Below, one piece after another: positions 33,671 through 34,006 of a DNA stretch of 64,000 nucleotides. Under the pieces are notes generated by a model that saw only the letters and a program-made list of their open reading frames with translations, was not told where the DNA came from and ran no database searches. The position numbers and the translations under genes are program-made. Numbering within the stretch: position 1 is the stretch's first letter; the number at the start of each line of letters is the position of its first letter. This DNA comes from a candidate division TM6 bacterium GW2011_GWF2_32_72 (GTDB taxonomy: Bacteria > Babelota > Babeliae > Babelales > CAIQNR01): contig CAMCVM010000004.1 of NCBI GenBank assembly GCA_945882015.1, positions 35,473 through 99,472 of the forward strand, written 5' to 3'.

Positions 33671-34006
33671 TTACCAACAACTGCATCCATGAGTGTTGTT
33701 TACTTGATGTTTTACGAGTGCATTTAGTCTACAATACGAACGACCACATCTATCACAAGTAAACGGTTTTTCGCCAGTATGAACTGGACGATGCTCTTTA
33801 AGACGAGCTGGATAATCAAAAACTCTCAAACAATCTTGGCACTGCCTATCAGGTTGAGTAACTCTAGGGTTAACTTTTTTTACTGCTGCCAAACGCGCAC
33901 TTCTTCTTATGAGTCCAGATACTATGTAGGATTTATCTTTTTCCCTGGCAACAACTGATTGAATAGTTTGAACCGAAAAAGAAACTAGTCCTATAAAGAA
34001 TACCAT
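33671..34006 (-). CDS. Exported protein with two eukaryote-type C2H2 zinc fingers and an RRSARLAAVKK motif
   Basis: 111 aa. Hydrophobic N-terminus MVFFIGLVSFSVQTIQSVVA. CQDC-X12-H-X3-H, TGEKPF linker, CDRC-X12-H-X5-H. Confidence 0.65.
   Translation of the reverse strand: MVFFIGLVSFSVQTIQSVVAREKDKSYIVSGLIRRSARLAAVKKVNPRVTQPDRQCQDCLRVFDYPARLKEHRPVHTGEKPFTCDRCGRSYCRLNALVKHQVNNTHGCSCW

Follow-up and report, generated by a model that had tools for sequence, protein, structure and literature searches.

Herein we characterize a small gene from a candidate division TM6 bacterium, located in a 64,000-nucleotide stretch of contig CAMCVM010000004.1 (positions 35,473 to 99,472 of the forward strand; the whole stretch is hereafter called the window), which encodes a 111-amino-acid (aa) protein that combines a hydrophobic N-terminus, a basic linker carrying an HMGN-like arginine motif and two tandem C2H2 zinc fingers of the eukaryotic type. 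The window is otherwise part of an ordinary small-genome bacterial chromosome with a guanine-plus-cytosine (GC) content of 35%, and its housekeeping genes include MnmG, Lgt, DnaG, RpoD, PurA, transketolase, ribonucleotide reductase (RNR), GroEL and photolyase, alongside a glycoside hydrolase family 18 (GH18) chitinase. Its H+-PPase, iPGM, RsmE, Na/Ala symporter and RNR-alpha are identical or at least 90% identical to the proteins of a Candidatus Babeliales bacterium metagenome-assembled genome (MAG; MFS85068xx), and RsmE relatives at a greater distance carry the names Babeliales, Dependentiae or TM6, the lineage being Candidatus Babelota, Babeliae, Babeliales. Dependentiae are obligate intracellular bacteria (PMC6561590, PMC12172432) that live as parasites of protists. 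The zinc-finger gene and the features that belong to it are the following.

33671..34006, minus strand: coding sequence of the 111-aa zinc-finger protein, supported by the list of open reading frames (ORFs) and by syntenic orthologues at 65-99% identity

34020..34023, minus strand: GGAG ribosome-binding site, lying 5 nt before the ATG of the orthologues, from comparison of the upstream sequences

34006..34010, minus strand: A5 homopolymer over the start codon, A6 in all other lineages by DNA alignment

33947..34006, minus strand: hydrophobic N-terminus, aa 1-20, MVFFIGLVSFSVQTIQSVVA, a putative Sec signal peptide or membrane anchor

33848..33946, minus strand: basic, fast-evolving linker, aa 21-53, isoelectric point (pI) 11, with nonsynonymous divergence (dN) 0.56 and synonymous divergence (dS) 0.87 between the window and L001

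33884..33907, minus strand: HMGN-like motif RRSARLAA, aa 34-41, which reads RRSARLAA, RRSDRLAG or RRSPRLAG in orthologues

33875..33881, minus strand: internal A7 homopolymer, codons V42-K43-K44, with an A6 variant in another assembly

33779..33841, minus strand: C2H2 finger 1, C56-X2-C59-X12-H72-X3-H76, CQDCLRVFDYPARLKEHRPVH, core residues F63 and L69, from regular-expression searches, Pfam and PDB alignments

33764..33778, minus strand: canonical TGEKP linker, aa 77-81, invariant in all orthologues

33689..33757, minus strand: C2H2 finger 2, C84-X2-C87-X12-H100-X5-H106, CDRCGRSYCRLNALVKHQVNNTH, core residues Y91 and L97, from regular-expression searches, Pfam and PDB alignments

33674..33688, minus strand: C-terminal tail H-G-C-x-C-[W/H], with G107, C108 and C110 invariant, and GCGCGCW in one lineage

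The ORF had been picked out in a prediction made from the bare sequence (hereafter the original prediction), whose position and quoted translation proved exact, as did its placing of RRSARLAAVKK at aa 34-44 (nt 33875-33907). Orthologues are longer (113-122 aa) through an MQK N-terminal extension, and MQKMVFF is the N-terminus in all of them but one variant. Their ATG corresponds to positions 34012-34014 of the window, where it is out of frame since the homopolymer is one base shorter, and the window ORF therefore begins at the second ATG; this means that A5 versus A6 at 34006-34010 sets whether the protein starts with MVFF or with MQKMVFF. The homopolymer variants may represent sequencing error, real decay or slipped-strand switching. 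The ~90 nt upstream of the gene are near-identical between lineages, and a scan of the locus for sigma-70 promoters and terminators returned none upstream of the gene and nothing better than shuffled sequences. With a GC content of 0.38, against 0.35 for the window, and a GC at third codon positions (GC3) of 0.21, the gene matches the host genome, and any transfer from a eukaryote was therefore not recent. A eukaryotic donor of the fingers, such as an amoeba, is hypothetical, and finger queries of the large protein libraries are swamped by poly-zinc-finger proteins. The predicted mature protein has 91 aa, a mass of 10.6 kDa and a pI of 9.8.

By every sequence criterion that we applied, the protein is a member of the C2H2 finger family, and its fingers are judged to be real and of the DNA-binding type. 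Both fit the pattern C-X2-4-C-X12-H-X3-5-H with the hydrophobic core residues F63/L69 and Y91/L97 in place and invariant, and they are joined by HTGEKPF (aa 76-82), which is invariant in 8 orthologues; the fingers and the TGEKPF linker of the original prediction thus stand, with the correction that its residue range (aa 55-105) was off by one. The Pfam hidden Markov model (HMM) zf-C2H2 (PF00096), proposed at that time as a check, matches in two stretches with 26.7 bits against a gathering cut-off of 25.2 (E=6.5e-6), and zf-H2C2_2 (22.9 bits) and zf-C2H2_4 give additional sub-threshold support. In a phmmer search of the PDB, aa 54-103 matched Zif268/EGR1 at ~1e-13 and the consensus finger 1MEY at 1.6e-15, as well as ZNF568 at 4e-44, an E-value inflated by the many fingers of that protein. 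The basic residue for phosphate contact two positions past the second Cys (R61 and R89) is invariant in orthologues, and of the helix positions -1/2/3/6, which read Y, A/V, R, E in finger 1 and R, N, A, K in finger 2, only position 2 of finger 1 varies. Overall, 42 of the 58 columns in the finger region are invariant. The C2H2 patterns, TGEKP and RRSxRL of this gene are the only ones in all six frames of the window.

Linkers of the TGEKP type are typical of fingers that bind DNA in tandem, as in Zif268, and two such fingers read ~6 bp, which is too short for unique targeting and fits a protein that gains affinity from a second contact. Beyond the canonical ligands the protein holds three conserved cysteines, namely C92 within finger 2 and the two of the C-terminal tail, where a weak, sub-threshold similarity to zf-AN1 was also seen (Pfam, E=0.015). 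These extra cysteines could form a third metal site, provide an alternative C2HC ligand set, or constitute a CaaX-like/CXC lipidation signal.

The original prediction had also held that bacterial C2H2 fingers are single, and this was too strong, since a tblastn search of a plasmid collection retrieved tandem, TGEKP- or TGERP-linked proteins from other bacteria. They are annotated, and none appears to have been characterized.

UWW97549.1: plasmid p_B of Cardinium (Amoebophilaceae), an intracellular symbiont; the C2H2 gene adjoins an ankyrin-repeat gene

WP_204426442.1: plasmid of Burkholderia sp. MS455, with large multi-finger proteins

WP_088137322.1: conjugative plasmids of Salmonella, encoding a leaderless protein of 115 aa with two fingers

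L011:1877-2704, L012:1-3049 and L013:1435-1782: the plasmid C2H2 loci

The segment between the hydrophobic N-terminus and the fingers is probably disordered, as its predicted local distance difference test (pLDDT) scores are below 50 and the AlphaFold2 model has no secondary structure there. Embedded in this fast-evolving linker is a conserved island: R34, R35, S36, R38, L39 and A40 are invariant in an 8-sequence alignment, so that 6 of 7 motif columns are invariant versus 5 of 26 in the remaining linker (one-sided Fisher p=0.0025). Given the amino-acid composition of the window, RRSxRL would be expected 0.005 times in its real ORFs and 0.035 times in six frames. The motif RRSARLAA agrees with the HMGN consensus RRSARLSA (taken from PMC12487698 and PMC13347269) at 7 of 8 positions, compared with 5 of 8 each for RRSSRLTS of tardigrade Dsup and RRSARIAT of yeast Dot5, and the features of this motif class (Arg at positions 1, 2 and 5, Ser at 3, Leu/Ile at 6) are all kept in the orthologues. 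The acidic patch of H2A-H2B is the binding site of RRSARLSA in HMGN, where R26 of HMGN2 serves as the arginine anchor and RRSAR is the segment resolved by cryo-electron microscopy, and the Dsup motif binds the nucleosome likewise (PMC12487698). Dot5 binds nucleosomes through its motif, in which R6, R7 and R10 are each required; a separate DNA-binding region synergises with the motif for stable nucleosome engagement, and overexpression of Dot5 disturbs silencing, genome stability and growth (PMC13347269). Judged from alignment, the island in the zinc-finger protein keeps the three arginines that are essential in the acidic-patch motifs of HMGN, Dsup and Dot5.

What is conserved here is a short linear motif, and the protein is not a member of the HMGN family. 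A pairwise BLASTP comparison with a provisional HMGN2 sequence gave 8 identities over 17 residues (E=0.015). When 1.84 billion cluster representatives were searched exhaustively with a profile of the first 60 residues, only the family itself (P0004 and the fragment P0066) was returned, apart from five further matches that were translated tandem-repeat junk, and there is therefore no wider family that shares the leader-plus-RRSARL module.

The N-terminus reaches a Kyte-Doolittle maximum of 2.58 over 10 aa, the protein has no second hydrophobic segment, and AlphaFold2 places a low-confidence helix at residues 4-20. Of the elements of a Sec signal peptide, the hydrophobic core MVFFIGLVSFSV is present, the n-region consists of MQK in orthologues and of nothing in the A5 variant of the window, and the -3/-1 residues at the putative cleavage site are V/A in the window, with T, N or K at -1 in orthologues. 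Sec export of the zinc-finger protein is thus a prediction that we regard as uncertain. A twin-arginine (Tat) signal was discarded as the RR stands after, not before, the hydrophobic segment, and RxLR and PEXEL host-targeting motifs were discarded on account of their different spacing.

A crude hydropathy rule assigns a signal-peptide-like N-terminus to 24 of the 62 listed ORFs in the window, whereas the cytosolic housekeeping neighbours have none. In the cultured Chromulinavorax destructans, 44% of the coding sequences carry signal peptides, a share that is similar to that of the window, the putative effectors are Sec-dependent, and outer-membrane vesicles have been seen (PMC6561590). The phylum also conserves genes for type II secretion, among them two copies of gspD (PMC4776705).

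The gene is real. Its zinc ligands, helix recognition residues and RRSxRLA core are invariant down to 65% identity, which bears out the conservation that the original prediction had made a condition, and in at least 5 independent assemblies from different samples it occupies the same place among bacterial housekeeping genes. Where the flanking sequence suffices, the order is iPGM, sec121, RsmE, zinc-finger gene, small secreted protein(s), TsaB, a 59-aa Zn-ribbon protein, RuvX and symporter. A search of 5.8 billion proteins returned orthologues only, at 98, 83, 81 and 65% identity, to which cluster members add a few variants (overall range 65-99%), and a scan of JGI metagenomes gave two loci, both from known lineages. 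No match for the gene was found in a scan of viral contigs or by tblastn against phages. Scans of GTDB genome contigs with zinc-finger and RsmE alignments also gave none; with the chosen patterns, no species representative of the clade could be reached. The family is restricted to a single uncultured clade.

Divergence was estimated by the Nei-Gojobori method. Across the whole zinc-finger gene dN/dS is 0.44-0.66, versus 0.16-0.24 for RsmE and TsaB, and the fingers (aa 54-111) have a dN of 0.09 and a dS of 0.32. Set against the dN of 0.56 in the linker, this shows constraint on the fingers and rapid change in the linker, and the rate for the entire gene is 2-3 times that of the neighbouring genes. 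The fingers are by these estimates under purifying selection, and the rate profile is one common for host-interaction genes. The neighbouring genes of positions 32416-34807 give discordant affinities: RsmE is nearer to L001 than to L003 (89% vs 84%), the zinc-finger protein is nearer to L003 than to L001 (84% vs 65%), and TsaB follows a third pattern, which speaks for recombination between Babeliales lineages that co-exist, or for rates that differ strongly.

The gene sits at the junction between RsmE and TsaB. RsmE is at least 77% identical within the clade and at most 54% identical in the next relatives (L014, L015 and L016), which keep a 13-gene backbone (LexA-like, S6, S18, (TruA), acetyltransferase, iPGM, sec121 and RsmE on one side of the junction, TsaB, RuvX, symporter, Mur ligase and H+-PPase on the other) with an RsmE-TsaB gap of 17 bp in L014, 282 bp in L016 and 486 bp in L015. 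No trace of the zinc-finger gene or of its neighbour sec142 was found in these three by tblastn or regular-expression search. The pair is thus absent from the three nearest other Babeliales and was therefore gained at the convergent RsmE-TsaB junction in one genus-level clade.

33103..33531, minus strand: sec142, the 142-aa co-inserted neighbour, with a canonical signal peptide that ends in …SVNA before A

Apart from its signal peptide, sec142 has a basic patch, KRKKKPGKPR, that resembles a nuclear localization signal, a conserved PYRVPxxSR[LV]AAL[KR]AIDAMKA motif and a dN/dS of 0.82. It shares with the zinc-finger protein the hexapeptide RLAA[VL]K, of which these are the only two occurrences in the window, and BLASTP between the two proteins found no homology despite this. 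sec142 may be a second nucleus-directed effector or a partner. NCBIfam has no family for the zinc-finger protein, for sec142 or for sec121; the last (34804-35169) was considered as part of the same effector islet and was ruled out, as it is kept in the backbone of distant relatives.

Further small genes were seen at this junction. L015:3431-3586 holds an unrelated 51-aa K/R-rich ORF (MKNQRRQKQKDRVKG…HRKKKKMIREKK), and small basic accessory genes seem to land repeatedly at the RsmE-TsaB junction. In the 65%-identity lineage, L001:6940-7251 encodes an extra 103-aa leader-bearing basic protein, located after a C-terminally truncated sec142 orthologue, and its C-terminus (…HRKAAIAAIERIQEAAK) is loosely like the sec142 motif; a local duplication or turnover within the islet would therefore be indicated.

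We favour, tentatively and at a little under an even chance, the reading that the protein is a secreted effector that binds host chromatin (a nucleomodulin), specific to this lineage of Babeliales, with bivalent binding to nucleosome and DNA. The host-chromatin effector proposed by the original prediction is supported in part, by the significant C2H2 match, the conserved residues, an intracellular group, a clade-specific insertion and faster evolution; homology to HMGN was not found. The N-terminal hydrophobic segment would direct Sec export, and type II secretion or outer-membrane vesicles would bring the protein to the host cytosol, from where a protein of ~10 kDa could diffuse through the nuclear pores. 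In the nucleus, the two Krueppel-type fingers would bind ~6 bp of host DNA, and the RRSxRLA arginines (R34/R35 and the anchor R38) would insert into the H2A-H2B acidic patch, as those of HMGN, Dsup and Dot5 do. The distance of 18 residues from R38 to C56 would be expected to span the way from the acidic patch to nucleosomal DNA. As the protein has no enzymatic domain and no activation or repression domain, it would act by occupancy, in competition with host clients of the acidic patch such as the H4 tail, remodellers and silencing factors, and would thereby perturb chromatin compaction or transcription. It is possible, if rather doubtful, that this is the first bacterial protein in which a functional HMGN-type arginine anchor is set on C2H2 fingers, clamping nucleosome face and DNA together and interfering with host chromatin on a global scale.

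Several observations weigh against this reading, the first of them at the motif itself. The Pfam model HMG14_17, named by the original prediction as a check, gave no match at E<=1 and hence no HMGN homology, and a phmmer search of the PDB with the linker at E<=10 returned a chance hit to ribosomal protein L36 and nothing of HMGN, Dsup or LANA. At motif position 4, one or two orthologous lineages have Asp or Pro (RRSDRLAG, RRSPRLAG), residues that are unfavourable at an acidic surface, Asp in particular, and a short motif can be conserved for other purposes such as nuclear import or DNA contact. The two fingers provide little sequence specificity. Their AlphaFold2 models, built from a shallow 6-sequence alignment with a mean pLDDT of 49, are unusable and uninformative; for nucleosome complexes, AlphaFold 3 mis-orients even HMGN2 (PMC12487698).

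Others concern export and the integrity of the gene. The window ORF, having no MQK, lacks the only positive charge of the putative n-region, and position -1 of the putative cleavage site varies between A, T, N and K. Past the hydrophobic segment, the flank R21…R35 exceeds the N-terminal flank (MQK, or nothing in the window variant) in basicity, and the positive-inside rule thus favours a C-terminal part that stays in the bacterial cytoplasm. If exported, the Cys-rich fingers would have to cross the periplasm, possibly an oxidising compartment. The A6 variant of the internal homopolymer (P0005/L010; L010:3001-3189) cuts the protein to 62 aa and the annotation of a related MAG holds a 73-aa C-terminal product only (P0010), which hints at a gene that is not always intact. 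Finally, the leaderless tandem C2H2 proteins on Salmonella and Burkholderia plasmids make a bacterial-internal role possible.

That role is the most serious alternative, although we consider it unlikely: a domesticated two-finger protein, tethered to the inner membrane (N-out/C-in), would bind DNA within the bacterium and act on its own chromosome as a regulator or nucleoid-associated protein, with RRSxRLA-KK as an extra DNA-binding arm. The charges round the hydrophobic segment would suit a cytoplasmic C-terminus, as would the missing n-region charge of the window variant and the variable cleavage site, yet the hydrophobic core spans just 12 residues before a Q/T/S-rich stretch and resembles a signal peptide more than a membrane helix. 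For the plasmid-borne proteins of Salmonella and Burkholderia a role in a host nucleus is unlikely, whereas the invariant residues of the present protein coincide with a eukaryote-specific nucleosome motif that has no target in bacteria. Whilst GC and GC3 are fully ameliorated, the gene entered as a clade-specific insertion together with a signal-peptide-bearing neighbour that has a basic patch, it evolves 2-3 times faster than its neighbours, which would be unusual for a core regulator, and it belongs to an obligate intracellular parasite that is rich in exported proteins.

Rather improbable, in our judgement, is a second alternative that retains all the evidence on export and host targeting of the nucleomodulin reading and departs from it in the motif: the protein would be a secreted, host-directed finger effector whose function is carried by the fingers (on DNA, RNA or protein), and RRSxRLA would serve not as an acidic-patch anchor but for nuclear import, as a basic DNA contact, as a phosphorylation or processing site, or as a host-translocation signal near the mature N-terminus. 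A protein of 10.6 kDa needs no nuclear localization signal, however, and the motif fits neither the RxLR/PEXEL nor the twin-arginine consensus. The variation to Asp or Pro at position 4 and the missing HMGN HMM match would fit this alternative, as would the pairwise alignment with the provisional HMGN2 sequence, which reaches only E=0.015 over 17 residues; against this, R-R-S-x-R-L comprises the residues that are essential in three independent acidic-patch binders, and with 7/8 matches to the HMGN consensus the window motif surpasses the validated motifs of Dsup and Dot5 (5/8). In sec142 the related R-x-S-R-L-A-A-L-K is ordered differently and, in one lineage, has lost the anchor Arg, which suggests that the basic-helix motif is a looser one.

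It is very improbable that the ORF is decaying or non-functional, or an artefact of assembly or contamination with a eukaryotic fragment in a bacterial bin, for, although homopolymer variants shift the start in the window and cut the ORF short in one other assembly, the annotation of a related MAG has just the 73-aa C-terminal product and the distribution is very narrow, the gene lies at the same place in at least 5 independent assemblies between bacterial housekeeping flanks, is preceded by a GGAG ribosome-binding site of bacterial type and by conserved upstream sequence, has the composition of its genome (GC 0.38 vs 0.35 for the window; GC3 0.21), keeps its fingers under purifying selection (dN 0.09 vs dS 0.32; 42/58 columns invariant), and shows its frameshifts in A-runs, where sequencing errors are common.

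To our knowledge, Dependentiae/Babeliales are widespread, almost uncultured parasites of protists whose host-manipulation tools are barely known beyond ankyrin repeats. Should the nucleomodulin reading be true, the protein would represent a new mechanistic class of bacterial nucleomodulins, acidic-patch targeting so far being documented for viral LANA and IE1, and an HMGN-like motif found in vertebrates, tardigrades and yeast would have been acquired or reinvented by an intracellular Dependentiae bacterium. It would also offer a testable entry into the biology of Dependentiae and their hosts: the acidic patch being universal, standard nucleosomes and yeast would suffice as test systems for recombinant protein, and the natural host need be neither known nor cultured. 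As a minimal natural design (~90 aa) of a bivalent nucleosome binder, it would possibly serve as a chromatin tether.

Some further observations were made elsewhere in the window. Runs of small leader-bearing ORFs without a Pfam family lie at 46948-50648 (plus strand), 16105-19176 and 28112-28917, and the GH18 chitinase at 23926-25125 also has a leader. The PurA homologue at 10294-11661 (minus strand) carries a 25-residue signal-peptide-like extension (MKKKLLYLVIAVLLSNSLAARSARG…) before its family match and a divergent P-loop, GWGGGVGKI; the start may have been mis-called, or the enzyme may be a PurA-like one that is exported or associated with the membrane. The RpoD-type sigma factor at 5689-8001 (plus strand; 770 aa) has a lysine-rich, histone-H1-like N-terminal extension with a net charge of +41 before region 1.1.

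Among known systems, the classical bacterial counterpart is Ros/MucR, which has a single finger of the form C-X2-C-X9-H-X3-4-H within a larger globular domain. Like it, the present protein is a bacterial Cys2His2 protein that is predicted to bind zinc and DNA, but with X12 spacing, a tandem arrangement with TGEKP and no match to the ROS_MUCR model of Pfam, it is not a member of that family. The plasmid C2H2 proteins are closer, as they too are bacterial and have tandem eukaryote-type fingers with HTGEKPY, HTGEKPF or HTGERPY linkers; they differ in having 36-40% identity over the fingers alone, no leader, no RRSxRL and a plasmid instead of a chromosomal location. They lower the novelty of Krueppel-type fingers in bacteria, and only the combination is new. 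In keeping with the claim of the original prediction that the combination is undescribed, no such pairing of domain and motif was met in a full-text literature search, in which absence is not proof; with the same limit, the search gave no link between C2H2 fingers and Dependentiae, Babela or TM6, no bacterial effector that binds the acidic patch and no C2H2-finger nucleomodulin.

The concept of a pathogen protein that binds host chromatin or DNA in the nucleus is shared with nucleomodulins such as TAL effectors, AnkA, LntA, RomA and the Ehrlichia tandem-repeat proteins (TRPs). These known nucleomodulins use type I, III or IV secretion, whereas here only Sec with type II secretion or vesicles is plausible. 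A 2021 review of nucleomodulins (PMC7819608) contains no C2H2-finger effector and nowhere mentions the acidic patch. Among viral proteins, LANA of Kaposi's sarcoma-associated herpesvirus (KSHV) and IE1 of cytomegalovirus (CMV) bind this patch through an arginine anchor (PMC9040877).

Compared with Krueppel-type fingers (Zif268/EGR1, ZNF568, 1MEY), the protein has the same spacing, C-X2-C-X3-[FY]-X5-L-X2-H-X3-5-H, the same TGEKP[FY] linker and the same phosphate-contact basic residues, with ~40-50% identity to mammalian fingers across both fingers. It differs from them in that it has two fingers only, no KRAB, BTB or SCAN domain, a second finger with H-X5-H and a GCxC tail; moreover, its gene is a bacterial one that has a ribosome-binding site of the bacterial kind and codes for a hydrophobic leader. 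The likeness to vertebrate HMGN lies in the octapeptide (7/8), set in a basic and apparently disordered segment with lysines after it, and in the invariance of the arginines that contact the acidic patch in HMGN (PMC12487698). Outside the motif there is no homology, neither the PKRK N-terminus nor the acidic C-terminal chromatin-unfolding domain of HMGN is found, and the protein is bacterial, bears a hydrophobic leader and is fused to zinc fingers. Dsup and Dot5 are eukaryotic nuclear proteins whose nucleosome binding is established by experiment, whereas here the protein is bacterial, the binding is a prediction and the second element would be a C2H2 pair; what the three have in common is a short arginine-anchor motif inside an otherwise unrelated protein, and the pairing of motif and separate DNA-binding region in Dot5 follows the same bivalent logic.

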